A stretch of 64,000 nt of DNA from Patescibacteria group bacterium (GCA_030583805.1 CP129476.1:53453-117452); one strand, 5' to 3'. Shown: positions 7,623 through 56,255, numbered from the stretch's first letter. Program-made: numbers and translations. Notes: generated by a model from the letters alone, not told the origin.

Positions 7623-8738
7623 TTATGCCGTCATTTTTTCGTACAGTTCTTTGTATTGCTCCGCAATCCGATCCCAGTCGAATTTCGCCAAGCGGCTCGT
7701 GGCCGTCTCCGCGAGGCGCGCGGCGAGCGCGGCGTCCGAGAGAATGCGCACGATCGCTTCCGCCAGCGCTTTCGGATCGGACGGGGGAACGAGCAGCCCG
7801 CTCTTCTCATGTTCGATCACGTCGGGAATGCCCCCGACGTTCGTGCCCACGACCGGCACGCCAAGCGCTTGCGCTTCAAGCAGCACGATGCCGAGGCCTT
7901 CGCCCAATGAGGGCAGGACGAAGACGGTGGACTGCGCGACTTCCGTCATGGCCTCCGTGTTCGGTTTGGCGCCGAGGAAGCGCACGACCTCTTGAAGCGA
8001 CTGTGCGTGCGTGAACTTCTTGAGTTCGGCTTCGAGCGCTCCGCCTCCGACGATGACGAGCTCGGCGTCGGCGACGGAGTGGCGCGCGATTTTGATCGCT
8101 TCGATCAGGAAGGGGAGACCTTTCTCAGGCGAGAGGCGGGCGACCGTGACGACGCGATGCTTCTTTTTTTCCAAACGCGGCACGTTGGCGAGATGGCTGA
8201 AGTCGACGCCGTTCGGGATCGTCGTCGTGTCTTTCGCGCCCAATCGGGCGGCGCGATTCGTGAGCGCCGTCGAGATGCCGACGACCTTGGTCGGCGAGAC
8301 GTGGATGTTGCGCCAGACGAAGCGCGGAATCTTTTTATTCTTGACCGGCATGTCCAAATCGCCCGACTGGAGCGTGAGTAGCGTCGGTTTTTTTCCGCCG
8401 AAGACGCGATACCACCAGAGCGCGATACCGGCATAGGATTCCATGACGGCGTGGACGAGGTCGTGCGGCTGCTTGAGAGACCAGAGCGGCGCTAGCAGCG
8501 GAAACGCGTATTTGTCCCACTTCTTTCCGAATCCGAGGCGCGTGATTTCGTACGTCGCGCCGCCCCCCAGCGTTTTCGTTTCGTGTTTTGGCAGCGTGCC
8601 GTCGAGACGCGCGGTCACGACGCAGATCGAAAAACGTCCGGCCAAGCGGCGGACGGTCTCGACGACCATCACCTCCGCTCCGGAAATGAACGGGTCGTAA
8701 AACGCAGAATAGATCAGGACGCGCTTACGCGGCGCCAT
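7623..8738 (-). CDS. glycosyltransferase family 4 (GT-B)
   Basis: 371 aa. GT4 C-terminal motif (SLGEGLGIVLLEAQALGVPVVGTNVGGIPDVIEHEKSGLL). Confidence 0.85.
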   Translation of the reverse strand: MAPRKRVLIYSAFYDPFISGAEVMVVETVRRLAGRFSICVVTARLDGTLPKHETKTLGGGATYEITRLGFGKKWDKYAFPLLAPLWSLKQPHDLVHAVMESYAGIALWWYRVFGGKKPTLLTLQSGDLDMPVKNKKIPRFVWRNIHVSPTKVVGISTALTNRAARLGAKDTTTIPNGVDFSHLANVPRLEKKKHRVVTVARLSPEKGLPFLIEAIKIARHSVADAELVIVGGGALEAELKKFTHAQSLQEVVRFLGAKPNTEAMTEVAQSTVFVLPSLGEGLGIVLLEAQALGVPVVGTNVGGIPDVIEHEKSGLLVPPSDPKALAEAIVRILSDAALAARLAETATSRLAKFDWDRIAEQYKELYEKMTA

Positions 8739-9699
8739 GCTTGTTTTTCATGTATTCGTAGGTCTCCCGAAGGCCTTCTTCAAGCGTCGTCTCCGCTTTG
8801 GTACCGATCAGCTCATGCATGCGCTGGACGTCCGGCGTGCGGTATTTGATCTCCATTTTACGCACCGGCAGGTATTCAATCTTCAGGTCTTTGCCCGAAA
8901 CGGCGGCGACGCGCTCGGCCAGTTCCTGGATGGTGGTCGGAATGCCTTTGCCGACGTTGATGGTCTGGCCGTCGGTCGTATCTTTCAGCATTGCGGTCAG
9001 AATGGTGTTGACGTTGTCTTTATAGAAAACGAAATCGCGCGTCGCCGAACCGTCGCCGAAAATATGGAGCGGCTCGCCCTTGAGCGCGCGGTCGAGAAAG
9101 ATGCCGACCACGAAACCGTACGGCGAGCTTTCTTGGCGCGGGCCGTAGACGTTGAAGAAGCGGAGTGCCACGGTTTTCAGTCCGTACTGCTCGTAGTAAT
9201 GATGCGTCAGGTTCTCTCCGAGCATCTTCACGAGGCTGTAGGGGTCGCGCGGGCTCACGTTGATCGGGCCGTGCTCATGCGTCGGCAGCGAGATCGGCTC
9301 GCCGTAGACCTCGGAAGAGGAGGAGTACAAAATTTTCTTGACCTTGCGATCCTTGCAGAATTCGAAAATCGCGCGGATGCCGTCGATATCCTTGAGGACG
9401 TCGAGCGGACGCTCTTCGACGCGCTTTACGCCGCAGAAGGCGCCGAGGTGGAAGACGTAGTCGGGTTTGTGGGTATCGAAGACGCGGTCGAGCGTCGGCC
9501 AGTCGTTGGCGTTGCCGTGCGCGAACGCAAAATTGGGATTACCTTCGTGTTGCGAAAGATTTTCGCGCTTGCCGGTCGAGAGATCGTCAAGAACGACGAC
9601 CTTGGCGCCGAGTTCGATCAGCCGGTCAGTCAGGTGGGAGCCGATGAACCCCGCTCCTCCCGTCACCAATACGCTGGCCCCTTTATACGCTTCAAACAT
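8725..9699 (-). CDS. NAD-dependent epimerase/dehydratase, UDP-glucuronate decarboxylase (UXS)-like
   Basis: Rossmann VLVTGGAGFIGSH, catalytic YxxxK region, and a UXS-like YGPRQ...GDGSATRDF segment. The ATG start at 9697-9699 is preferred over the upstream GTG. Confidence 0.85.
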   Translation of the reverse strand: MFEAYKGASVLVTGGAGFIGSHLTDRLIELGAKVVVLDDLSTGKRENLSQHEGNPNFAFAHGNANDWPTLDRVFDTHKPDYVFHLGAFCGVKRVEERPLDVLKDIDGIRAIFEFCKDRKVKKILYSSSSEVYGEPISLPTHEHGPINVSPRDPYSLVKMLGENLTHHYYEQYGLKTVALRFFNVYGPRQESSPYGFVVGIFLDRALKGEPLHIFGDGSATRDFVFYKDNVNTILTAMLKDTTDGQTINVGKGIPTTIQELAERVAAVSGKDLKIEYLPVRKMEIKYRTPDVQRMHELIGTKAETTLEEGLRETYEYMKNKHGAA

Positions 9700-9781
9700 A
9701 TGGCGACACTCTAGCGAAAACACGCATTTTTGGCCAGGGGTGAAAACCGGGAAAATAAAAATCCCCGATGCGCAACGGGCT

Positions 9782-10219
9782 TCAGATACCCTTGCTCTTC
9801 GGGGGTGGCGGAGGAGGATCGGCCGGCGCGGTACCCTCCGTGGCCGGAGCCATGATCGGCACCTTCTCGTCCGGCATCTTGACCTTCACGCCGTCGAACA
9901 CCTTGGAATCGAGCTTCTTGCCGACTTCCTTGGCGGCCTCCTTGGCGGCCTCTTGCTGAGCATCGCGCCCGCCGGGCGTCGCCTTCCGGATCGCGTCGCG
10001 GACTTCCTTGGTGGCGCCGCCCTGGTCGTTGCCGGTCGCCTTGTCGGCGCGCTGCTTGTTGCCGTCGTTCTCGCGCTTCACGCGGTGCGCGTCGCGCCTG
10101 TTGGCTCCGTCGGGGACAGGCTTCGTCTTCGGCACCACGGTGACCTGCACCTCTTCGGGCTTGACCGTCGGCTTCTCGCGTTCGCGCGGGTCGCCGCCCT
10201 CTTTCTTGTCATCTGGCAT
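9782..10219 (-). CDS. hypothetical low-complexity charged protein (K/E/D/P-rich, C-terminal PPPPPPK)
   Basis: 145 aa. GGAGG RBS 7 nt upstream of the ATG. Compositionally biased; no recognisable domain. Confidence 0.45.
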   Translation of the reverse strand: MPDDKKEGGDPREREKPTVKPEEVQVTVVPKTKPVPDGANRRDAHRVKRENDGNKQRADKATGNDQGGATKEVRDAIRKATPGGRDAQQEAAKEAAKEVGKKLDSKVFDGVKVKMPDEKVPIMAPATEGTAPADPPPPPPKSKGI

Positions 10220-10332
10220 GATCGTACTCCTCCGTTTTGGGATGACATAGATAGCTTGACACCAGGCCTAAAACGTGTAAAGGTGCGCCTGTTGTATCGC
10301 GACTTCAACCGCACATCTTGGAGGGAATGCGC

Positions 10333-10785
10333 ATGAGTTGCAGAGCAATCGAGATCAGCGGGCTTCAGCTGCGCAGGATCGTCCGGTGGGGCGTGTCGAT
10401 CCTGACGGATGGACCGAACCTGCTGCCGCGACCGTCGACCTGGAAACGGGTCTGCGTCGACCTGAAACCCGTCACGTTGACGGGGGACCCCAGCTTCCTG
10501 CGTCGCCTCAAGCAGATCGAGATGGTCGGCGGCAAGAACGCGGTGCTGGTGACGGCGCAGGATATCGCCGCGAACTCGGCGCTGGCGCGCTACCTGCTGT
10601 GCGCCGGCTGGACGATCATCGCCCGCGGCAACGGCGCCTACGCGGTGCAGAAGGTCATCTTCCGCCGGCCGATCAAGGACGATCTGGTCGGCGAGATCGA
10701 CCAGCACCAGATCTTCCAGGTGCCGACGAGCGCGCTCGCGCCGTGGGGCGGCACGCTCGATCCGATCACGCGCGCCGCTTCCTGA
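10333..10785 (+). CDS. hypothetical protein
   Basis: A GGAGGG RBS precedes ATG 10333 (MSCRAIEISGL...). No recognisable domain. The overlapping R-rich frame 10338-10826 was judged a shadow. Confidence 0.45.
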   Translation: MSCRAIEISGLQLRRIVRWGVSILTDGPNLLPRPSTWKRVCVDLKPVTLTGDPSFLRRLKQIEMVGGKNAVLVTAQDIAANSALARYLLCAGWTIIARGNGAYAVQKVIFRRPIKDDLVGEIDQHQIFQVPTSALAPWGGTLDPITRAAS

Positions 10786-45442: not shown

Positions 45443-46054
45443 ATGAATCCCAAGCAGGAAACGATTGCCGCCTACGAGGCGTTTCCCAAAGACTTCGACG
45501 TCGAGTTTGAGCGGCACATGCGTCTCTACAACATGGGGCATGTCGAGCGTTTCCTGTGCTGCGTTCGCGGGGCGAGTATCCTCGACCTCGGAGCCGGCCC
45601 GGGCAACTACGCCGCCGAGTTTGCCGATCGCGGATTCGATGTCCTTTGCGGAGACCTTTCGCCCAGGATGGTCGAGTACTGCCGCCGCAAAGGCCTTGCC
45701 GCCGAGGTGCTCGATATCGAGACGTTCGATCTTCAGCGTCGCTTCAACGGCATCTGGGCAAACGCGGTTCTGCTGCATCTCCCTAAGACGGCTCTCCCAT
45801 CGGTCTTTGAACGCATCGCTCAACACCTGGTTCCCGGCGGCGTGTTCGCATGTTCCGTCAAAGAGGGGGAGGGCGAGGGGTTGAAAGACGATCCGGACTA
45901 CCCCGGCACGCGGCGCTTCTTCAGCTACTACGCTGAAGAAGAGTTCCGAACGCTGCTCATGCCGCGTTTCGCGATCACAGCGTTCGAACGGACGCCGTCG
46001 CGTTCCGGTCAGACGGTTTTCATCAAGTATCTGACGCACCTGCGGCCGACATGA
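45443..46054 (+). CDS. class I SAM-dependent methyltransferase
   Basis: 203 aa. Motif I ILDLGAGPGNYA and acidic post-I residue (CGDLS). Confidence 0.75.
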   Translation: MNPKQETIAAYEAFPKDFDVEFERHMRLYNMGHVERFLCCVRGASILDLGAGPGNYAAEFADRGFDVLCGDLSPRMVEYCRRKGLAAEVLDIETFDLQRRFNGIWANAVLLHLPKTALPSVFERIAQHLVPGGVFACSVKEGEGEGLKDDPDYPGTRRFFSYYAEEEFRTLLMPRFAITAFERTPSRSGQTVFIKYLTHLRPT

Positions 46055-46539
46055 GCCCTGTTGGTCATCGCTCCACTCCGATGGTAAAATCTCGCCATCG
46101 GATTTTTTTATCCACACCCGCCTCTATGCCCAGCCTAGAAGAAGTGCACGGACGCTTGCGCGTGAAGGCCCGCGAAAAAAGCGAGCTGCAGAAAGCCTTC
46201 AAAGACGAGCTCGCGAACAATCCCCGTTACCAGCAAATCGCTGAACAACTCAAGGTCTTGAAAGAGGAAAAGAAGTCGATCGAGAACCAAGTCTGGGCCG
46301 CCTCGTCGGCGGACGCGCAGAAACTCGACCTCTTGGCGCTCGACATCAAGTCCGACCGCGAGATGCTCTCCGAGCTGGCGCTCAATATGTACGTAAAAGG
46401 GGAAACCGTGCAGATCGTCGACGAGTTCCAAGCGCGTTGGGTTCCGAAGTTCGCCGTGACGTTTAAGAAAGATGACGAGATGCAGGAGGAGCGCTCGTCC
46501 GCTGCCGCTGAAGTTCCTGAACCGGATTTCGCGGCGTAA
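46051..46539 (+). CDS. hypothetical coiled-coil protein (start possibly internal at ATG 46126)
   Basis: Charged helical sequence, no domain match. ATGA overlap with the methyltransferase stop at 46051. Confidence 0.4.
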   Translation: MSPVGHRSTPMVKSRHRIFLSTPASMPSLEEVHGRLRVKAREKSELQKAFKDELANNPRYQQIAEQLKVLKEEKKSIENQVWAASSADAQKLDLLALDIKSDREMLSELALNMYVKGETVQIVDEFQARWVPKFAVTFKKDDEMQEERSSAAAEVPEPDFAA

Positions 46540-46554
46540 CTCCCACTCCTCCGT

Positions 46555-47199
46555 ATGGAAGAAAAATCGATTCAAAAACTGAACGCGGGTATTTCCGTCG
46601 TGTTCATCGCCGCCGCCTTGGTGCTCTTCGGCGTCGCGCTTAAAAATCGGAATGCCGCCGAGCCCGCTGCCGAACCGCCCGCCTCCACAAGCGCGCCTTC
46701 CCAGGAGTCGCAGCAGTACCAGGATCTCGCGGGCATGCGTCAGCTCGAGCTGGCCAAGGATTTCGCAAGTTGGACGCCCGAAGCCAAGCTTGAAACCGAA
46801 AAAACGCGCAGCGGCATGCTGGCCGTCACGGGCAAGATTGCCAAAGCGTTCTTGATCGTCAAAGCCTCCGTCGATGGCAAGCCGCTCACGAAGTACGAGA
46901 GCGTTTTCGTCAAGCTGAATGATGCCGGAGGACACCTGTTCCGCCCACAGTCGCTCCCGAGCCCGGATTCCGGAGTGACGAGCCTGCTCTTCGACCTGAG
47001 CGCCGTCCCGGTTTTGCCGAGCATTCCGTACGACGAGACGCGCACGCCCGACCAAGCCGACCTTTCGGCAGTCTTGCTGGACGGAAAATCCGTCAGGCTC
47101 ACGGCGTTCATCTCCTCGTTGCGCCCGGCGCTGCTTGAAGAGCTCACGCTCTCGTACGTTTGCGCCGAGGATTCCGATTGCAACGTCGTCGCCAAGTAA
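46555..47199 (+). CDS. hypothetical membrane-anchored protein (N-terminal TM, Pro/Ala-rich linker)
   Basis: 214 aa. TM helix ISVVFIAAALVLFGVAL. Confidence 0.5.
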   Translation: MEEKSIQKLNAGISVVFIAAALVLFGVALKNRNAAEPAAEPPASTSAPSQESQQYQDLAGMRQLELAKDFASWTPEAKLETEKTRSGMLAVTGKIAKAFLIVKASVDGKPLTKYESVFVKLNDAGGHLFRPQSLPSPDSGVTSLLFDLSAVPVLPSIPYDETRTPDQADLSAVLLDGKSVRLTAFISSLRPALLEELTLSYVCAEDSDCNVVAK

Positions 47200-47863: not shown

Positions 47864-49933
47864 ATGACTACTCGTCGCGGCCGATCGTTTTTTTATTACG
47901 TGTCCGTTCCGTTCGTCTGGCTCGGTAAAGCGCTGAGCCGGATCGTGAAACCGACGTCCCGCGGCAAAGTACGCTGGGCTGTTTTGACTGTCTTGATTCT
48001 GGCCGGACTCTCCGGCTTCTTGGCGTATCCGCAGGCCTGGGATCGCGGCGCCGACGCTTGGAATACCAAGGTTGTCGACGGCATGAATCTGCCTGGCGGT
48101 TTCAAGATCCCGCATTTCGCCAACGTTCCGTACCGCCTCGGCCTTGATCTTCAAGGCGGCACGCACCTCGTCTACGAAGCGGATACTTCCGATATCGTTC
48201 CGAGCGAGCGCGACGCGGCAATGGAAGGCGTGCGCGACGTCATCGAGCGCCGCGTCAACGCGTTCGGCGTTGCCGAGCCGATCATCCAAACCAACAAGGC
48301 GGACGATCGCTGGCGTATTATCGTTGAGCTCGCGGGCGTTCGCGATGTCAGCGAGGCTATCCGCATGATCGGTGAAACGCCTATTCTTGAATTCAAAGAG
48401 GAAAACCCCGTTTCGGAAATTCCGCTCACGCCTGAGCAACAGAAGGAGCTCGAGACGCGCAACGCCGACCTGAAGAAACAGGCAAACGACACGTTGCGGT
48501 CGGCGCTCATCAACCCGAACGACGAAAAACTTGCCTGGGAAAACCTCGGTTCCGTCGGCGAAAGCCAGTACCCGGAACTTTGGAAGTGGGCCGATACGCA
48601 CCGTGGCGCCAAGCTTGCCGGGACGCTGGTTGAGGATCCGGAATACTGGAACGTGCTGCGCGTGAATGCCCGCGACGATGCCGAAAAGGAAATCAAGGCG
48701 AGCCATATTCTGATTTGCTGGGAAGATGCCCAGGGTTGCGGAGAGCCGCTCACGAAGGAGCAGGCTTTGGAGCAGATCACCGCGCTGCGCGGCGAAGTCA
48801 CGGCGCAGAACTTTGCGGAGAAAGCCAAGGCGAATTCAACGGACGGTTCCGTCAGCGTAAATGACGGCGATCTTGGCTGGTTCGGCGAAGGAATGATGGT
48901 CAAGGAATTCCAGGACGCCGCCTTCGCGCTCAAGAACGGGGAGATTTCTCAGCCTGTCGAATCTCCGTTCGGCTACCACCTGATCTACAAAACGGGGGAG
49001 CGCCCGCTCGTGCGCTACGATCTCGACCGCATTGCGTTCAAAAAAGTGACCGCTGCCGACGTCGCGCCGCAGGCCGATCCGTGGAAGAACACGGGCTTGT
49101 CCGGCAAGCATGTGCAGCGCGCGCAGGTTGAATTCGATCAGACGGTCAACCGCCCGCAGGTGCTTCTTACGTTCAACGAAGAAGGTAAAACGCTTTTTGC
49201 CGAACTCACCAAGCGCAGCGTCGGAAAACTGATCGCGATCTATCTCGACGGCCAGGCGATCTCCATTCCGCGCGTGCAGCAAGAAATCGCGGACGGCAAT
49301 GCCGTCATCAGCGGCGACTTTGATGTGAAGGAAGCGAAGCTCTTGTCGCAGCGTCTCAATGCCGGCGCATTGCCGGTACCGATCACGCTGCTCTCCCAGC
49401 AGACGATCGGCGCATCGCTCGGCCAAGACTCGTTGGCAAAGAGCCTGAACGCCGGCTTGATCGGCTTCCTGATCGTCGTTGTCTTCATGACCTTGTACTA
49501 CCGCCTCCCGGGCTTGATTGCCTCGTTGGCGCTGCTCATGTACACCGGTTTCGTGCTCGCGATCTTCAAGCTCTTGGGCATCACGCTGACCCTCTCGGGC
49601 GTTGCGGGCGTCATCTTGTCGATCGGCATGGCCGTGGACGCCAACATCCTGATCTTCGAGCGCATGAAGGAAGAGTTGAAGAATGCCCGCCCGCTTGATT
49701 CGGCGATCGCGGAAGGCTTCAAGCGCGCCTGGACCTCGATCTACGACTCGAATATCTCCTCGCTTATCACCTGCGCCATCTTGTACACCTTCACGTCGAG
49801 TTCGGTGCGTGGCTTCGCGGTGACCTTGGCGATCGGTATCGTCGTCTCGATGTTCTCTGCCATTACGGTGACGCGCACGCTGCTCCGCTTGGTCGCGCCG
49901 TGGACTAGTAACTCTCGCTGGCTCTTCAAGTAA
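47864..49933 (+). CDS. secD: protein translocase subunit SecD with an inserted parvulin-type PPIase domain in the periplasmic P1 region
   Basis: 689 aa. SecD motifs (GLDLQGGTHLVYEAD, GETPILEFKEE, C-terminal 6-TM bundle). Between them sits a PpiC rotamase signature (KASHILI...GDLGWFGEGMMVKEFQDAAFALKNGEISQPVESPFGYHLIY). Confidence 0.9.
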   Translation: MTTRRGRSFFYYVSVPFVWLGKALSRIVKPTSRGKVRWAVLTVLILAGLSGFLAYPQAWDRGADAWNTKVVDGMNLPGGFKIPHFANVPYRLGLDLQGGTHLVYEADTSDIVPSERDAAMEGVRDVIERRVNAFGVAEPIIQTNKADDRWRIIVELAGVRDVSEAIRMIGETPILEFKEENPVSEIPLTPEQQKELETRNADLKKQANDTLRSALINPNDEKLAWENLGSVGESQYPELWKWADTHRGAKLAGTLVEDPEYWNVLRVNARDDAEKEIKASHILICWEDAQGCGEPLTKEQALEQITALRGEVTAQNFAEKAKANSTDGSVSVNDGDLGWFGEGMMVKEFQDAAFALKNGEISQPVESPFGYHLIYKTGERPLVRYDLDRIAFKKVTAADVAPQADPWKNTGLSGKHVQRAQVEFDQTVNRPQVLLTFNEEGKTLFAELTKRSVGKLIAIYLDGQAISIPRVQQEIADGNAVISGDFDVKEAKLLSQRLNAGALPVPITLLSQQTIGASLGQDSLAKSLNAGLIGFLIVVVFMTLYYRLPGLIASLALLMYTGFVLAIFKLLGITLTLSGVAGVILSIGMAVDANILIFERMKEELKNARPLDSAIAEGFKRAWTSIYDSNISSLITCAILYTFTSSSVRGFAVTLAIGIVVSMFSAITVTRTLLRLVAPWTSNSRWLFK

Positions 49934-49934
49934 T

Positions 49935-50846
49935 ATGCTGCGCATCACGCATCACCGCCGAACCTACTACCTCCTTTCCGGACTGCTGACCGGCCTCGCT
50001 TTGGTCGCGTGGTTGTCGTGGGGTCTCAAGCCGGGAATCGATTTTACCGGAGGATCCCTCATGGAAATCGAGTTCTCGCAGGGCCGTCCCGAGGTCACGC
50101 AGATTGTTGAGGTTGCCCGCGCATCCGTCGCCAGCGAGGAGTTGACGGTTCAGCCGCTCGGAGAACGCGGCATGGTCCTGAGGATGCCGCCTCTCGCGGA
50201 AACGGATCATCAAAAACTGCTTCTGGGCCTGAAAGAGAGCTTTGAGAAGGATGGCGCCGTTCTGGATGAAAAGCGATTTGAATCGATCGGTCCCTTGATC
50301 GGCGAAGAGCTTCGCAAGAAGACGATCTACGCCGTCTTCGGCGCGATCTTGGCAATCGTCCTCTACATCACCTACGCCTTCCGCAAGGTCTCGCACCCGG
50401 TTTCGTCGTGGAAATACGGCGCTTGCACCGTCGTCGCTCTGGCGCACGACGTGATCATTCCTGTTGGCGTCTTCTCGGCGCTCGGACACTTCTACGGCAT
50501 CGAAGTCGGCGCCTGGGTCGTAACCGCGCTGCTCACGGTTCTGGGTTTCTCGGTGCACGATACGATCGTCGTATTCGACCGCATTCGCGAAAACCTGGCG
50601 CACGCGCGTCGCGAGAGCTTCGAAGAGATCATCAACCGCAGCTTGAACGAGACGCTCGGCCGCTCGATCAACACGTCGCTCACCGTGCTGTTCGTGCTCT
50701 TCTCCACGTATTTCCTGGGCGGCGAATCGATCAGGAACTTCATCCTGTCCATGACGATCGGCGTCTCTGTCGGCGTCTACTCCTCGATCTTCTTGGCTAG
50801 CCCGCTTCTGGTCAGCTGGCATCTCCGTGATTCCAAAAAAGGCTAA
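49935..50846 (+). CDS. secF: protein translocase subunit SecF
   Basis: 303 aa. SecF motifs (IDFTGGS, 6 TM). Starts 1 nt after the secD stop. Confidence 0.9.
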   Translation: MLRITHHRRTYYLLSGLLTGLALVAWLSWGLKPGIDFTGGSLMEIEFSQGRPEVTQIVEVARASVASEELTVQPLGERGMVLRMPPLAETDHQKLLLGLKESFEKDGAVLDEKRFESIGPLIGEELRKKTIYAVFGAILAIVLYITYAFRKVSHPVSSWKYGACTVVALAHDVIIPVGVFSALGHFYGIEVGAWVVTALLTVLGFSVHDTIVVFDRIRENLAHARRESFEEIINRSLNETLGRSINTSLTVLFVLFSTYFLGGESIRNFILSMTIGVSVGVYSSIFLASPLLVSWHLRDSKKG

Positions 50847-50891
50847 GGAAGGGGAAAAAAGGAATCTTCCAAAACACCGAAAAATATGCTA

Positions 50892-50928
50892 CGCTTCCGT
50901 TGACTACGGAAGCGTTGCTTTTTTCTCC
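50892..50928 (+). terminator. intrinsic terminator after secDF
   Basis: Hairpin CGCTTCCGT-TGACT-ACGGAAGCG (9-bp stem) followed by TTGCTTTTTTCTCC. It overlaps the first 12 codons of the track ORF at 50900, so that ORF's true start is downstream. Confidence 0.65.
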
Positions 50929-50932
50929 GTCC

Positions 50933-52252
50933 ATGCCCCAGATCGTCCTGGACCTGTCGCCACTGTACGCGTTGATGGATCAATCGCCGCTCCAGATCGC
51001 CTGGACATTTTTCGTGTACGGCGGCTGGATCCCGTTTGTTTGGATCCTGTGGCACGGTTTTTCGGAAATTTGGCTGGCGTCGCGTCAGAACAAGTACGCG
51101 GAGACGATCAACTACGTCTTGTTGAGCGTCAATATCCCGAGGATGAACGAGCAGACGCCGAAAGCGGCCGAGCATATTTTCTCGCACCTTGCCGGCACGT
51201 TCTCCTCGCCGAACTTCAAGGAAAAATGGCTTCAGGGAAAATTTACTCCGCCTTTTTCATTCGAGTACGCCTCGATAGACGGGTACACGCAGTTTATCGT
51301 GCGTGCGCCGATCCAATTCCGCGATTTGGTCGAGGCGTCGATCTTTTCGCAGTATCCCGACGCTGAAATCACGGAGATCGCCGATTACACTAAAAACGTT
51401 CCGCTCAAGCATCCGGACCCGGAATGGGATTGCTGGGGTACGGAATTCACGTTGGCAAAGCCGTCCGCGATCCCGCTGCGTACCTACACCGAGTTCGAGC
51501 ACACGCTTTCGCAGGAACTGAAAGACCCGCTCTCGACCCTGCTCGAAACGCTTTCGCGTTTGCGGAAAGGGGAGCAGGTTTGGATCCAGATCATCGTGTA
51601 CCCGCGCGATCAGAACTGGATCCAGGAATCGGTCAAAGTCGCCAACAAGATGAAGGGCCGCGAGGTGAAGAAGAAACCGCCGGCATGGCAAGGGCTTGTC
51701 GAGGAGGGTTTCAGTCTCATGACGGTTGGCGTGAGCCAGGTCGTCGGCGTTGGCGCGAAGGAAGCGGAAAAGAAAAAGGAGGAAAGCCGCGTGCCCAACC
51801 TGTCGCCTGGCGAAAAGCGTTTGTTGGAAGGCGTCGAGAATAAAATGTCGAAGTTCGGTTTTGGCGTGAAGATTCGCTTCGTCTATGTCGGCAAGCGCTC
51901 CGTTTTCCGGAAGGGTCCCATGATTTCGATGGTGCGCGGCGCTTTCGGCCTGTTCGGTTCCCTCGACGGCAACAGCCTCAAGGGCTACGGCAAGGCGGCT
52001 CCGAAAACGGATTACTTCTGGCAGCGCTGGAGCACGGAGGAAAAGAAGACGAAAATTATCACGCGGTTTTCGAACCGTTCTTCAGCAGGCGCCGACCGTT
52101 TCATCTTGAATGTGGAAGAGCTGGCGAGTTTGTGGCACTTCCCGCAAATTTTGGTGAAGGCTCCGCTGCTGAAGAAGGTTGACTCGCGCAAAGTCGAGCC
52201 GCCGTTCTCGTTGCCCGAAACGCCCGACGCCGCGCTGCCGACCCAAGAGTGA
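50933..52252 (+). CDS. hypothetical membrane protein (2 N-terminal TM helices + large soluble domain), upstream partner of T4CP-like ATPase
   Basis: Start placed at ATG 50933 (MPQIVLDLS...), just after the terminator. TM helices around IAWTFFVYGGWIPFVWILW. No domain match for the rest. Confidence 0.55.
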   Translation: MPQIVLDLSPLYALMDQSPLQIAWTFFVYGGWIPFVWILWHGFSEIWLASRQNKYAETINYVLLSVNIPRMNEQTPKAAEHIFSHLAGTFSSPNFKEKWLQGKFTPPFSFEYASIDGYTQFIVRAPIQFRDLVEASIFSQYPDAEITEIADYTKNVPLKHPDPEWDCWGTEFTLAKPSAIPLRTYTEFEHTLSQELKDPLSTLLETLSRLRKGEQVWIQIIVYPRDQNWIQESVKVANKMKGREVKKKPPAWQGLVEEGFSLMTVGVSQVVGVGAKEAEKKKEESRVPNLSPGEKRLLEGVENKMSKFGFGVKIRFVYVGKRSVFRKGPMISMVRGAFGLFGSLDGNSLKGYGKAAPKTDYFWQRWSTEEKKTKIITRFSNRSSAGADRFILNVEELASLWHFPQILVKAPLLKKVDSRKVEPPFSLPETPDAALPTQE

Positions 52253-52258
52253 CGCTTT

Positions 52259-54100
52259 ATGGCATTTTCCGCTGCGCCCTACAACCACGATCACGAAAAC
52301 GAAGTCATTCCGTTTGCGGAGACGAATTTTCGCGGTGAGAATCGGAAGTTCGGCATCAAGACCGACGATCGCCGCCGCCACGTGTACGTGATCGGTAAGA
52401 CGGGCATGGGCAAGACGACCCTGCTCGAAAACTTCGTCATGTCCGATATTTACGCCGGGCACGGTTTGGCGTACGTCGATCCGCACGGCGATACGGCCGA
52501 TAAGATTCTCGACTTCATTCCGCCCTGGCGCATTAATGACGTCGTCTATTTCAATCCGGCCGACATGGAGTTCCCGGTCGGGTTCAATATTCTTGAAATC
52601 GCCAACGAAAACCAAAAACACCTCGTGGCCTCCGGGCTCATGGGCGTCTTCAAGAAAATCTGGCCGGACGTCTGGTCGGCGCGTATGGAGTACATCCTGC
52701 TCAACTGCGTGCTGGCGCTGCTCGACACCCCCGGCTCGACGCTGTTGGGCATCAGCCGCATTTTGGCCGACAAGGATTTCCGCAAGAAGATCGTCGAGAA
52801 CGTGAAGGATCCGGTCGTAAAAGGCTTTTGGGTGAACGAATTCGCGAAGTATACGGACAAGTTCGCGTCCGAAGCGATCGCGCCGGTCCAGAACAAGGTC
52901 GGTCAATTCTTGTCGAACACGGTCATCCGCAACATCGTGGCCCAGACGAAGTCGACGATCAACATCCGGCAGATCATGGATGAGCGCAAGATCCTGATCG
53001 TGAACTTGTCGAAGGGTTTGGTCGGTGAAGACTCGAGCAAGCTTTTGGGCGGCATGCTGATCACGCGCTTGCAGCTCGCCGCCATGGAGCGCGTCGATAT
53101 GCTCGAAAAAGACCGTCAGGACTTTTATCTGTACGTCGACGAGTTCCAGAACTTCGCCACGGAATCGTTTGCCAATATCCTGTCCGAAGCGCGTAAATAC
53201 CGCCTGGCGCTGATCACGGCGCATCAATATATCGAGCAGCTTGAAGAAGAAGTGGCAGCCGCCGTCTTCGGCAACGTCGGCACGATTATTTCCTTCCGCG
53301 TCGGCGCGAACGATGCCGAGCATCTGGCGAAAGAATTCGCGCCCGTGTTCGTTGAGGAGGATATTATCAACCTCGCGAAATACGAAGTGTATCTCAAGCT
53401 CATGATCGACGGCGTGGCCTCTTCGCCGTTCTCGGCGAAAACGCTTTCGCCGATCGCGAAACGCACCGAGAGCCGCGAGAAAGTCATTACGTCCTCTCGC
53501 GAGCGGTACGCGCTGACACGCAACGACATCGAAACGAAAGTGAATACCTGGGCCGGCTTCGATGAAGCGACGGGTACGTTCGTCGGCAAGCCGGCGGCCG
53601 CGGGAGGTCCGTCATCGCCATTCAGCGAAGCGCCGCGCGAAAATTCCGATCGCCAATACAAGGCGAACTGCTCGCGTTGCGACAAGGAGCTGCATTTGAA
53701 ATTCCCGCCAGACCCGAGCCGGCCGTTCTATTGCAAGGAATGCTTGCCCTTCGCGCGAGCCGAAGCGGCTTCTGCGCCGAAACCGTCGGCCAGACCTGCT
53801 TCGAGCGCCGCTCCGCGACCGCCTGCACCGAGGCCGTCGCAAGCGTCCACCACCCACGCGCCGCTACCCGGAGCCCCTCGCACCGCGACCCCGAAACCGG
53901 ATGCCAAGCCCGCCCCGAAGCTTGCCGATAAACCCCTGCCTCCACCTCCGAAGCCCGGTATGTTTGCCGGTAAAATCCGGGTCGTTACCGACACGCAAGA
54001 GCCGGAAGTGTCGACTCCTGCGAAATCAGTCCCTTCCCCGACGGCGCCGAAGCCCGCGCCGCCGCGCTTGCCGCCCCTGAGCTTAAAACCGAAGGCCTGA
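52259..54100 (+). CDS. VirD4/TraG/TraD-like (type IV coupling protein family) P-loop NTPase lacking N-terminal TM anchor; C-terminal zinc ribbon + Pro/Ala-rich tail
   Basis: 613 aa. Walker A VIGKTGMGKTT and Walker B/DEF box FYLYVDEFQNF. C-terminus CSRCDKELHL...YCKECLPF followed by PKPSARPASSAAPRPPAPRP...PPPPKPG. Confidence 0.65.
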   Translation: MAFSAAPYNHDHENEVIPFAETNFRGENRKFGIKTDDRRRHVYVIGKTGMGKTTLLENFVMSDIYAGHGLAYVDPHGDTADKILDFIPPWRINDVVYFNPADMEFPVGFNILEIANENQKHLVASGLMGVFKKIWPDVWSARMEYILLNCVLALLDTPGSTLLGISRILADKDFRKKIVENVKDPVVKGFWVNEFAKYTDKFASEAIAPVQNKVGQFLSNTVIRNIVAQTKSTINIRQIMDERKILIVNLSKGLVGEDSSKLLGGMLITRLQLAAMERVDMLEKDRQDFYLYVDEFQNFATESFANILSEARKYRLALITAHQYIEQLEEEVAAAVFGNVGTIISFRVGANDAEHLAKEFAPVFVEEDIINLAKYEVYLKLMIDGVASSPFSAKTLSPIAKRTESREKVITSSRERYALTRNDIETKVNTWAGFDEATGTFVGKPAAAGGPSSPFSEAPRENSDRQYKANCSRCDKELHLKFPPDPSRPFYCKECLPFARAEAASAPKPSARPASSAAPRPPAPRPSQASTTHAPLPGAPRTATPKPDAKPAPKLADKPLPPPPKPGMFAGKIRVVTDTQEPEVSTPAKSVPSPTAPKPAPPRLPPLSLKPKA

Positions 54101-54153
54101 CCCTCGCCGGGTTGCCAGCCTGTAAGTTTTTTGTTGTACTCGCGTCTTAGCTA

Positions 54154-54726
54154 ATGAACTCGACTGTATCAATGGAATGGCTGAAAGAAGCTGGGCTTCT
54201 GCGCAGAATTCGGTCGGGGGAGGAGGCCGCGTTCGTCGAAACGTACGAGTTTTTCGGCCCAAAGATCTATCGGCACGCCCTTTTCCGCACAAGTTCTCCG
54301 GAAACGGCCGATGATATCATGAGCGAAACCTTTGTCCGGGCTTGGGAAACCATCCGGGTGAAGTCCGCCGAAATCAAAAAATTACGGGCTTTTCTCTACC
54401 GCATCGCTGACAACTTGATCATCGACCACTACCGCCGCAACGCCCGCTCCGCCATCGCGATCAGCGACGAGATCGAGGAAACGCTGCGGGCGCCCGGCGA
54501 TCCGCACGAAGAGATCGATCGTTTGCTGAAGAGCGAGCGGCTGGTGCACGAGCTCAACAGCTTGCGCCCTGAAACGCGCGATCTCCTCATCATGCGCTAC
54601 GTCGATGATCTCTCGATCGAGGAAATCGCCGTGATGACAGGGAAGAAAAAAAACGCCGTTTACGTCGCGATCCACCGCGCCGTAAAAGAACTGAAACTCG
54701 CATGTCCTGCAATCCCAAAGAACTGA
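54154..54726 (+). CDS. RNA polymerase ECF-type sigma-70 factor
   Basis: 190 aa. Region 2 (FVETYEFFGPKIYRHALFRTS, YRIADNLIIDHYRR) and region 4 (LSIEEIAVMTGKKKNAVYVAIHRAVKEL). Confidence 0.85.
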   Translation: MNSTVSMEWLKEAGLLRRIRSGEEAAFVETYEFFGPKIYRHALFRTSSPETADDIMSETFVRAWETIRVKSAEIKKLRAFLYRIADNLIIDHYRRNARSAIAISDEIEETLRAPGDPHEEIDRLLKSERLVHELNSLRPETRDLLIMRYVDDLSIEEIAVMTGKKKNAVYVAIHRAVKELKLACPAIPKN

Positions 54727-55535
54727 AAGAACTTCGACGCTTCCCGATCCCGGAAGCCGTTCTTGAGGGCGGCCGCGAGCGATTGCGGATCGTTATGGCT
54801 GAGCTGCCGTTCGTGCCCGGCGCGCGCCGCCACTTCGGCATTTTCATTTGGAAGCCGGCCATGACGCTCGCACTGATCGGCGTGCTGGTGTTTTCGAGCG
54901 GGGGAGCGGTCATGGCATCGATCGGCGCCGTGCCGGGCGAACGCTTGTACTCGGTCAAGCTCGCGGTCGAAGGCGTGCGGGAGCGCCTCGCGGTTTCGCC
55001 GGCTCGCAAATTTACGCTCCAGGCCGTGCACGCCTCGCGCCGTTTGGAAGAGACAGAAAAACTGATCGTCAATGAAGATCTCGCGGTAGAAATGCGCGAT
55101 GAACGCATTCAAGCCGTGTTGCACGAATACGAAGACCATCTTTTCAAGATGAATGCTTTGGCCGTGCGTTTGTCCGTCGATCCGCCGAAACCGAAAGCGA
55201 GCGCGCGCGCGATTGCCGCGGCGGAGCGCATGTTCGACCGGCACGCCGAGCTTGTCGCTTCGGCAACCGTGACGGAACCCGTCGTGACGGCCGCCGTGCT
55301 CGCGCCGATTGACATGGCGCTGGAATTGCAAAACGAAGTGCTTGAATCGATGTTTCAAGAGAGCGAGAAGCGCGACGATCGGCGCGACGGCGACGATGAG
55401 AACGAAGATGATCGTTCGCACGGCAAGTTGGAAGACAGGCATCGCGAGCGCACGAAGAAAATGAAAGAGCGTCTTCAGCTCCTGCGATTCGAACTCGATC
55501 TTCAAGCCCCACTTGAAAATCCCCTGAAAATATGA
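54702..55535 (+). CDS. putative anti-sigma factor (single TM, DUF5667-like extracytoplasmic helical domain)
   Basis: Overlaps the sigma-factor 3' end. One TM (LALIGVLVFSSGGAVMASIGA). Helical charged C-terminal domain. Context suggests an anti-sigma role. Confidence 0.55.
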   Translation: MSCNPKELKELRRFPIPEAVLEGGRERLRIVMAELPFVPGARRHFGIFIWKPAMTLALIGVLVFSSGGAVMASIGAVPGERLYSVKLAVEGVRERLAVSPARKFTLQAVHASRRLEETEKLIVNEDLAVEMRDERIQAVLHEYEDHLFKMNALAVRLSVDPPKPKASARAIAAAERMFDRHAELVASATVTEPVVTAAVLAPIDMALELQNEVLESMFQESEKRDDRRDGDDENEDDRSHGKLEDRHRERTKKMKERLQLLRFELDLQAPLENPLKI

Positions 55536-55553: not shown

Positions 55554-56255
55554 ATGTCGGAGGATTTTCTTTCCTTTAAAAACGGTTTCGTCCTTGCGGC
55601 GCTGTGCTTTTTGCTGGCAGCGCCTGTTTCCGCCGCTGAACCTTCGGCGTTCGATACGGACGGCGACGGGTACGACGACGCGACGGAAATGGCGAACGGA
55701 TACACGCCGTACGGTCCCGGCCGTCTTGAGACGCACGACGCCGATGGCGACGAGTTAACCGACGCAGACGAACTTATTTTTGGAACGGATCCGCTCGCGC
55801 CGGACAGCGACCGTGACGGGTATCGCGACGGTGAAGAAGTGCGGCATGGATACGATCCGGCGAAGGGTTCGTCGGCGCGCCTTCAGAAGCGCATCGTGAT
55901 CACGCTGGCGACGCAAACCCTGGCCTATTCGATCGGACCGAAACAACTGGGCACGTTCGAAGTCTCCACCGGGCGTCCGGGATATCCGACGCCGCTTGGA
56001 ACGTTCGCCATCCGCGATAAAATACCGCGCGCATGGTCAAATTCTGCCAAACTCTGGATGCCGTATTGGATGCCGTTCATCGGTACGACGTACGGTCTTC
56101 ATGAATTGCCGGAATGGCCCGGCGGCAAAAAGGAAGGAGAGGATAGTCTGGGTACGCCTGTTTCCGGCGGCTGCGTGCGCCTCGGCGTCGGTTCGGCAAA
56201 GACGCTTTACGAGTGGGCGGAAGTCGGTACGGAGGTCACGATCAATAAAACGTAA
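55554..56255 (+). CDS. L,D-transpeptidase (YkuD domain) with signal peptide and N-terminal Asp-rich Ca-binding-type repeats
   Basis: 233 aa. Signal peptide. Repeats DTDGDGYDD, DADGDELTD, DSDRDGYRD. YkuD catalytic region (HGYD...SGGCVRL). Confidence 0.8.
   Translation: MSEDFLSFKNGFVLAALCFLLAAPVSAAEPSAFDTDGDGYDDATEMANGYTPYGPGRLETHDADGDELTDADELIFGTDPLAPDSDRDGYRDGEEVRHGYDPAKGSSARLQKRIVITLATQTLAYSIGPKQLGTFEVSTGRPGYPTPLGTFAIRDKIPRAWSNSAKLWMPYWMPFIGTTYGLHELPEWPGGKKEGEDSLGTPVSGGCVRLGVGSAKTLYEWAEVGTEVTINKT

Follow-up and report, generated by a model that had tools for sequence, protein, structure and literature searches.

A 64,000-nucleotide stretch of DNA from a Patescibacteria group bacterium (GCA_030583805.1 CP129476.1:53453-117452), here called the window, contains downstream of secD and secF two co-directional genes, with only 6 nt between the stop of the first and the start of the next, which encode a 439-residue protein of the DUF8128 family and a 613-residue P-loop ATPase. 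An original prediction, made from the sequence alone, had described a membrane-protein gene closely trailed by the ATPase gene, as is indeed found, and had proposed a split type IV coupling protein (T4CP) whose anchor is supplied by the upstream gene. Based on profile, fold and locus comparisons, we propose that the two genes probably encode one T4CP made as two polypeptides, of which the first would tether the second to the membrane, and for which a chromosomal type IV secretion system (T4SS) would be a candidate partner.

The pair is bracketed by two terminator-like hairpins (Table 1). The first, located just 3' of the secF stop at 50846, comprises a 10-bp stem at 50891-50915 with six GC pairs and a 5-nt loop, followed by a T-run, in agreement with the predicted terminator between secF and the next gene. 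It had also been thought to overlap the first 12 codons of that gene, as the listed first open reading frame (50900-52252) opens with a TTG at 50900. However, the homologues, 439-446 residues long, begin with MP.I.IDL, matching the ATG at 50933 (MPQIVLDLS), and a public gene call on an identical contig uses the equivalent ATG. As DUF8128 starts at this ATG, the hairpin lies outside the coding sequence, hairpin and T-run stopping only 8 nt short of the start codon. The second hairpin closes the pair after the ATPase stop, giving it the appearance of a bicistronic unit. No sigma-70-like promoter was detected on the plus strand between 50600 and 54400, and expression of the pair may need read-through from secDF or an unrecognised promoter type. 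The ATPase is 100% identical to an NCBI protein from a Patescibacteria metagenome-assembled genome (P0121).

Table 1 Features of the DUF8128-ATPase gene pair, in positions of the window.
Feature	Position	Strand	Basis or remark
Terminator-like hairpin and T-run	50891..50925	+	between secF stop and DUF8128 start
DUF8128 (PF26449) gene, 439 aa	50933..52252	+	start from homologues and public gene call
Probable single N-terminal transmembrane (TM) helix, residues ~19-45	50987..51067	+	only hydrophobic stretch, Kyte-Doolittle hydropathy over 19 residues (KD-19) 1.47
C-terminal motif EELAxLxHFP...VKAPLxKK...EPPxxLP of DUF8128 protein	52115..52216	+	E396, A398, H402, P404 and P424 invariant in 79 sequences
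TM-less T4CP-type (VirD4/TrwB-like) ATPase gene, 613 aa	52259..54100	+	Pfam, PDB sequence search, Foldseek
Walker A GKTGMGKT, residues 46-53	52394..52417	+	G46, K47, T48, G49, G51 and K52 invariant in 40 homologues
Seven-helix insertion in nucleotide-binding domain, residues 117-227	52607..52939	+	secondary structure of AlphaFold2 (AF2) model
Walker B YLYVDEFQNF, residues 290-299, and T4CP-type motif EARKYRLALITAHQ, residues 310-323	53126..53227	+	invariant columns, 40 homologues
CxxC-x17-CxxC treble-clef zinc ribbon, residues 466-497	53654..53749	+	Pfam zf_Tbcl_2
Pro/Ala/Lys-rich tail, 116 aa	53750..54097	+	32 P, 22 A, 11 K
Second terminator-like hairpin and T-run	54108..54132	+	directly 3' of ATPase stop

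By profile and by fold, the ATPase is a T4CP and not a HerA- or FtsK-type motor. Three T4CP families of Pfam exceed their cut-offs, namely TrwB_AAD_bind (41.1 bits, cut-off 20.5, covering residues 35-370), TraG-D_C (29.2 bits, cut-off 22) and T4SS-DNA_transf (22.9 bits, cut-off 20.1), whereas DUF87/HerA (21.8 vs 23.2) and FtsK_SpoIIIE (14.1 vs 24) stay below theirs. AAA_10 and CagE are not matched at all, and the NCBIfam model VirB4_CagE reaches 24 bits against a cut-off of 643; the other NCBIfam matches are TraD and VirD4-like models, all far under their equivalog cut-offs. Among PDB sequences, TrwB and DotL are the only matches at E <= 0.01, with the single sequence as well as with a 40-sequence profile, a DnaA-related protein and HerA reaching just E 0.16-0.94. 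The T4CP-like Walker A and the DEF-type Walker B that had been pointed out in the original prediction are both present and invariant across 40 homologues, and in the PDB search the segment comprising Walker B and EARKYRLALITAHQ aligns to TrwB 'GRKAGLRVVAGLQ'. Membership of a HerA/FtsK clade, which had been named as the result that would speak against a T4CP, is therefore not what profiles and fold indicate.

The AF2 model of the ATPase (pLDDT, the predicted local distance difference test, 76) shows a RecA-like core, and Foldseek places TrwB chains first (E 3e-11, TMt ~0.63, identity ~16%), followed by HerA (~1e-10), then Cag-beta and DotL, and then the VirB4 C-terminal domain (2.5e-8). In the model, the helical insertion within the nucleotide-binding domain likely represents the all-alpha domain (AAD) of T4CPs, equivalent to that of TrwB. 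The ATPase and TrwB of R388, or VirD4, are alike in the nucleotide-binding domain with its Walker motifs, in the RK..Q motif and in the helical insertion. They differ in that TrwB has no DUF8128-like domain and carries its two TM helices at the N-terminus of the ATPase chain itself. An N-terminal TM domain is missing from the ATPase chain, as predicted: no convincing TM segment is found by KD-19 hydropathy, the top windows (1.47), at residues 146 and 332, being part of the globular fold, and the ATPase domain begins about 35 residues from the N-terminus.

A probable membrane segment is found in the product of the first gene. The precomputed Pfam match on the identical 439-residue product is PF26449:DUF8128, seen on nearly all homologues as well, and approximately 3,250 clusters at 50% identity match the DUF8128 profile at E<=0.001. 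Nothing was returned for this protein by NCBIfam, PADLOC or a Pfam copy lacking the PF26449 model, nor did the DUF8128 profile match any PDB sequence. The family contains many invariant residues. A membrane protein with two TM helices and a large soluble domain had been anticipated; the soluble domain and one probable helix hold, while the second TM candidate (residues ~251-270) is amphipathic, poorly conserved, charged in homologues and of low pLDDT. The AF2 model (pLDDT 82.5) contains a long helix at residues 19-56, in which residues ~22-45 are moderately hydrophobic, with basic residues (SRQNKY) following the TM segment, and folds the remaining 380 residues into confident alpha/beta domains. 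From the positive-inside rule, an N-out/C-in topology is predicted, which would place the large domain in the cytoplasm. The anchor is accordingly not a TrwB-like domain with two TM helices, being composed of one TM helix and a 380-residue domain, predicted as cytoplasmic.

The relationship between the two proteins becomes apparent through single-chain T4CPs. A tblastn search of plasmids with the ATPase core returned 348 records at 28-38% identity, one of them matching through the C-terminal half of an 812-residue plasmid protein of Embleya sp. NBC_00896 (WP_331738717.1), annotated as 'type IV secretory system conjugative DNA transfer family protein', with Pfam-confirmed neighbours comprising TrbL-like, PrgI (VirB3-like), VirB4, Replic_Relax and NlpC/P60 proteins. 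The DUF8128 profile is collinear with the N-terminal 400 residues of this T4CP, the two sharing the motifs DPL..LL...S.L..GEQ...QI..P and ELA.L.H.P..AP.L...PP..P. In hhalign comparisons, DUF8128 matches three plasmid-borne fused T4CP sequences with 83% probability (E 8.8e-6), the fused N-domain with 93.8% when a 79-sequence DUF8128 profile is used (E 1.7e-7), and 72 metagenomic N-domains with 97.5% (E 5.5e-12, with 327 columns covering essentially all of the domain). The probability thus climbed as the profiles were enriched, and a negative control (Replic_Relax) gave 0-0.4%. The DUF8128 TM segment aligns to the TM and Arg-rich stretch of the fused T4CPs, and its C-terminal motif to 'PELAALAHLP..APGL..ARSVVPPARIP', the linker that leads into their ATPase domain. 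Of 81 metagenomic frames with the N-domain, 78 continue in frame into a match to the hidden Markov model (HMM) built for the ATPase of the candidate phyla radiation (CPR), the other three being cut by contig ends or otherwise lacking a downstream ATPase part. Residues 34-434 of the DUF8128 protein map to 47-397 of the Embleya T4CP and residues 14-413 of the ATPase to 397-796; consequently, both window proteins tile one T4CP end to end, with the break in the linker after EPPxxLP. As judged from these sequence alignments, DUF8128 is homologous to the N-terminal region, one TM segment plus some 400 residues, of single-chain T4CPs of about 810 residues.

The CPR ATPase HMM gives 245 bits on the fused T4CP and reports nothing for R46 TraJ, pGO1 TrsK and three VirB4s; the fused and split forms constitute a distinct T4CP subfamily. 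The fused members are genuine T4CPs, since VirB4, PrgI and Replic_Relax adjoin them in every one of the 27 loci that span 12 kb or more; an association with VirB4 or a relaxase was found neither in the window nor in the 80 related loci described below. The GC content of the metagenomic loci with fused T4CPs (65-78%) points to an origin in Actinomycetota. The Embleya-type T4CPs thus hold the same modules in the same order as the pair studied here, i.e. one TM helix, a DUF8128-like domain, the linker motif and an ATPase of the same subfamily, 31% identical to that of the window. In contrast, they form one polypeptide instead of two, they are located on plasmids or other elements beside VirB4, PrgI, TrbL-like, Replic_Relax and NlpC/P60 genes and not among housekeeping genes, and they come from high-GC Actinomycetota and lack both the zinc ribbon and the Pro-rich tail.

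These two additions occupy the C-terminus of the window ATPase. The predicted CxxC...CxxC ribbon is recovered, with cysteines spanning residues 471-495, by zf_Tbcl_2 (27.8 bits, cut-off 27), and scores 29 bits, under the cut-off of 36, with NCBIfam TIGR04272. The tail has the Pro/Ala/Lys-rich composition that had been noticed, suggesting disorder, and is longer than the approximately 70 residues first estimated. Its length varies among homologues, and the alignment consensus ends in a short conserved motif, GxLxPGQxIxF. In one locus (L007), the ATPase (7914-9941) has neither a ribbon nor an upstream DUF8128 gene, and a separate 118-residue gene about 150 nt downstream of it (10096-10452) encodes two zf_Tbcl_2 domains of the CxxC-x17-CxxC type, so that the ribbon appears to be a separable module.

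To what extent the two genes are kept together was examined in 80 related loci from different GTDB species, including Uhr-, Magasanik-, Buchanan-, Falkow-, Kerfeld-, Doudna-, Moran-, Nealson-, Portnoy- and Andersenbacteria among others, within flanks of ±8 kb or less where contigs end. DUF8128 is located directly upstream of the ATPase on the same strand in 75 of them, with gaps of -27 to +544 nt, one further locus being truncated, and the lists of close homologues of the two proteins share contigs. The upstream protein is hence conserved with the ATPase, and together with the ATPase class and the homology to the fused N-half this supports the proposed split T4CP with an anchor from the upstream gene. 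No DUF8128-ATPase fusion was seen in the 80 Patescibacteria loci or among the top matches of three protein searches, one of which sampled Andersenbacteria. The conserved block reads secD-secF-(Sigma70_r4/HARE-HTH gene)-DUF8128-ATPase, and the downstream genes vary. A protein of about 350 residues with Sigma70_r4 and HARE-HTH domains is encoded between secF and DUF8128 in 50 of the 80 loci (e.g. L049:5249-6343 and L061:5502-6590). The window has no such gene in the corresponding interval (50846-50933) and instead carries an extracytoplasmic function (ECF) sigma/DUF5667 pair downstream of the ATPase.

Across 703 all-against-all locus pairs, mean identity is 64.6% for the ATPase core, 47.5% for SecF and 35.0% for DUF8128. 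The ATPase exceeds SecF in 99.9% of the pairs, and its conservation is also higher than that of SecD and MnmA. Divergence of DUF8128 and the ATPase correlates in a mirror-tree style comparison (r = 0.68), which is uninformative, as the correlations with SecF are similar (0.66 and 0.63). The genes surrounding the pair in the window encode SecD and SecF upstream and an ECF sigma factor, a DUF5667 protein, a YkuD transpeptidase, an HD-domain protein, a radical-SAM protein (RlmN-like) and MnmA downstream. In line with this housekeeping synteny, the pair represents vertically inherited core genes; as had been supposed, it is not a mobile element. A mobile-element reading was also considered and rejected, given that the relatives in IMG/VR and on plasmids and phages are either shorter stand-alone ATPases or fused actinobacterial T4CPs and that the context in the window is housekeeping.

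T4CPs without a TM domain are an accepted subclass (PMC7434980). In the systems of pIP501, with TraJ and the putative anchor TraI, and of pGO1, with TrsK, a T4CP ATPase without TM segments of its own is believed to be tethered by a membrane protein from an adjacent gene (PMC7434980, PMC13037476). The pair described here shows the same combination, an ATPase without a TM domain next to a gene, adjacent in 75 of the 80 loci, whose product would act as the anchor. It differs in that the anchor of the pIP501-type systems is a small protein, as compared to 439 residues with a large conserved cytoplasmic domain here, and in that the pIP501 and pGO1 genes are part of conjugation operons with a relaxase; moreover, pGO1 TrsK goes undetected by the CPR ATPase HMM. 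The window ATPase is evidently one of the orphan T4CP homologues that have been reported for Patescibacteria in a recent survey (Quinonero-Coronel et al. 2025, PMC12102498), and NCBI names it likewise. In that survey, 5,713 VirD4-type T4CP homologues are counted in 2,918 of 3,035 Patescibacteria genomes, 148 of the 5,713 being near virB4; the T4SS is described as derived from the mating-pair-formation (MPF) class FATA, with VirB4 in 2,417 of the 3,035 genomes and relaxases almost absent, and exaptation of the orphan T4CP homologues is left open. The passages of the survey that were examined contain no mention of a DUF8128 partner or of a split/fused relation, and neither 'DUF8128' nor 'PF26449' is mentioned in the literature searched. 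Within this literature, including the survey passages, there therefore appears to be no description of DUF8128 as the second half of the T4CP, of the fused form in Actinomycetota, of the linkage to secDF or of a conservation above that of Sec components.

A Saccharibacteria epibiont offers a further comparison. The essential T4SS cluster of S. epibionticum has no recognisable T4CP (PMC10633639). Its genome encodes SEML1_0293, a non-essential protein of 921 residues with TrwB_AAD_bind at residues 402-719, located directly after the essential 'RpoS' sigma gene SEML1_0294 (PMC10633639), just as the pair directly follows a sigma-factor gene in 50 of the 80 loci. Judged by size, domain position and synteny, SEML1_0293 may be a fused DUF8128-ATPase. 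Insertion reads in this gene fall approximately fourfold from T0 to T2 (5,817 to 1,372), those of its neighbours remaining flat (PMC10633639 Table S1), which, although the gene was called 'non-essential', hints at a mild fitness cost. A second 'T4CP-like' protein, SEML1_0142 (1,019 residues, FtsK-like ECOD match), and a small upstream gene are essential (PMC10633639 Table S1; SEML1_0141/0142).

We propose that the two-polypeptide T4CP would operate as follows. DUF8128 would supply the N-terminal half of the 'long' T4CP subfamily, i.e. one membrane helix and a cytoplasmic domain of about 380 residues, and the second gene the VirD4/TrwB-type nucleotide-binding domain with its helical insertion, to which the zinc ribbon and the proline-rich tail would have been added in the Patescibacteria lineage. 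DUF8128 would insert with its N-terminus outside and its C-terminus inside, and the cytoplasmic domain may then dock onto the ATPase, presumably a hexamer by analogy with TrwB, tethering it to the membrane. Ribbon and tail could form a docking site for substrates or adaptors, similar to the C-terminal extensions of TraD and DotL. Through ATP hydrolysis, either DNA or protein would then be recruited or driven as the macromolecular substrate at the membrane. The likeliest partner is the MPF-FATA-like T4SS encoded elsewhere on the chromosome of most Patescibacteria, which has no T4CP of its own, an assignment we regard as close to an even call.

Several observations weigh against this proposal. 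The interaction of the pair, its membrane localisation and its ATPase activity are all predictions drawn from the protein sequences, and the TM helix of DUF8128 is only moderately hydrophobic. Four of the 79 informative loci have no DUF8128 gene in the 2.3 to 8 kb examined upstream of the ATPase. In line with the original prediction of no T4SS genes nearby, a tblastn search with 13 T4SS proteins found no homologue elsewhere in the 64-kb window, a search for ATPase paralogues and T4SS genes in the window returned the ATPase gene only, and neither VirB4 nor any other recognisable T4SS protein was detected in the 80 related loci within ±8 kb, or less at contig ends. By genomes, the published T4CP homologues outnumber VirB4 and are seldom near virB4 (PMC12102498). 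In S. epibionticum, the T4SS is essential and SEML1_0293, a candidate orthologue, is not (PMC10633639 Table S1). Finally, the closer ATPase relatives outside the CPR (38-45% identity) are stand-alone proteins of about 400 residues with no DUF8128 nearby.

An alternative is a split T4CP that has been exapted for a core task without VirB4 machinery, such as acquiring or exporting DNA or nucleotides, handling the chromosome or serving protein traffic next to Sec, which we consider a serious possibility, though on balance the less probable one. Compatible with such a role are the housekeeping synteny with secD, secF and a sigma-like gene in the absence of any T4SS gene nearby, the conservation of the ATPase above SecF, SecD and MnmA, which is unusual for conjugative T4CPs, and the lineage-specific addition of ribbon and tail. 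The occurrence of T4CP homologues in more genomes than VirB4 points in the same direction, and exaptation was raised by the survey's authors themselves (PMC12102498). However, the published number of T4CPs probably combines two paralogues, SEML1_0142 being of the FtsK-like kind, making the genome-count argument a weak one, and T4CP genes are often far from virB4 (PMC12102498). The secDF synteny may simply represent a gene order that has been conserved. In Saccharibacteria, the candidate orthologue is not required in co-culture, arguing against an indispensable housekeeping role there, and no positive evidence for another partner or substrate was obtained. We regard T4SS coupling and a T4SS-independent role as roughly comparable, with a slight edge to coupling, since the fused relatives themselves belong to bona fide T4SSs of the same MPF class. 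A more specific version, in which the Patescibacteria split T4CP is a core membrane translocase independent of VirB4 that moves protein or nucleic acid within the cell or between the epibiont and its host, is rather unlikely; if true, it would explain the conservation above SecD and SecF, the presence in more genomes than VirB4 and the ribbon with its docking tail.

Less well supported is the view that the pair is a divergent, split VirB4-like ATPase with DUF8128 as the VirB4 N-terminal domain, which we judge to be quite improbable. It originates from Foldseek, where the top six matches of the DUF8128 model are R388 TrwK/VirB4 chains (7o42_A, E 9.4e-5, prob 1.0, ~439 columns). However, the TM-score is only 0.38 with a root-mean-square deviation of 11.5 A, and the next matches (E ~8e-3) are unrelated FAD oxidases. 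Foldseek was the one method to return this likeness: hhalign of DUF8128 against 55 actinobacterial VirB4s gave 0.1-0.3%, the level of the negative control, comparisons to single sequences of pGO1 TrsD and TrsE, R46 TraB and the Embleya VirB4 were negative, and Pfam at E <= 10 yielded noise only and no VirB4 family for 42 DUF8128 members. Furthermore, it is T4CP models rather than AAA_10 or CagE that match the ATPase, and a separate bona fide VirB4 adjoins the fused homologues. A VirB4 N-terminal-domain identity of DUF8128 was consequently demoted once the profile tests stayed at control level. A distant kinship of DUF8128 with the VirB4 N-terminal domain, as the structural model may suggest, is likewise improbable; if true, the T4CP subfamily would stand architecturally between VirB4 and canonical T4CPs.

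Least tenable, and very unlikely, is a HerA/FtsK-type or defence ATPase next to an unrelated membrane protein, a reading suggested by the best PADLOC match (mad8 of the MADS defence system, 56.5 bits), the high Foldseek rank of HerA structures and the stand-alone relatives on plasmids, islands and SPO1-like phages, and largely refuted by the fusion evidence, as the DUF8128 neighbour is conserved with the ATPase and homologous to the fused N-half and thus not unrelated, the DUF87 and FtsK scores are under cut-off, the ATPase has neither a HAS-barrel nor an FtsK gamma domain, a high HerA rank is expected for the superfamily, no PADLOC family other than mad8 is matched by the ATPase and none by DUF8128, no other mad genes are present in the locus, and the context of Sec, sigma and tRNA-modification genes is housekeeping rather than a defence island.

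The stand-alone TM-less relatives are proteins of approximately 350-430 residues, with 31-60% identity in eight loci (L084-L090 from IMG/VR and L091 from a Sulfitobacter plasmid) and 23-26% among phage matches (H26-H40). They are located in phage-like regions, integrase islands, mostly non-mobilizable plasmids and SPO1-like Bacillus phages, and include gp156 of phage G. The stand-alone ATPase of L089, like that of L090, is adjoined by a large membrane protein that contains another, weaker T4CP-like domain.

Further features were observed around the pair. SecD (47864-49933, plus strand, 689 residues) contains a PPIC-type parvulin rotamase at residues ~266-376 (Rotamase_3, 82 bits), inserted in the periplasmic P1 region between SecD_1st and SecDF_P1_head, i.e. 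a translocon subunit with a built-in foldase. Upstream of secD, two open reading frames on the plus strand (46051-46539, 162 residues, and 46555-47199, 214 residues) have no Pfam match at E <= 0.01. Downstream of the ATPase, the ECF-type sigma gene (Sigma70_r2 and r4_2; 54154-54726, plus strand) overlaps the DUF5667 gene (54702-55535, plus strand) by 25 nt; the DUF5667 protein has 277 residues and one TM-like stretch, and the two likely form the sigma/anti-sigma pair that had been predicted at this position. The DUF5667 gene is followed by a YkuD L,D-transpeptidase gene with TSP3 repeats (55554-56255).

In conclusion, we here describe a T4CP that is probably made as two polypeptides. At least a quarter of bacterial diversity may belong to Patescibacteria; they depend on host cells, and their secretion machinery is the main suspect for the extraction of resources from these hosts. 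Within this group, orphan T4CPs are nearly universal and unexplained (PMC12102498), while T4SS clusters lack a coupling protein (PMC10633639). If the orphan T4CP is half a protein, DUF8128 gains a concrete role as its other half. The comparison also defines a T4CP subfamily common to Patescibacteria and Actinomycetota, the latter being the host phylum of the cultivated Saccharibacteria. The function of T4CPs in Patescibacteria thereby becomes a testable question of two genes, and the strong conservation of the motor suggests that the answer will matter across the biology of the whole group.

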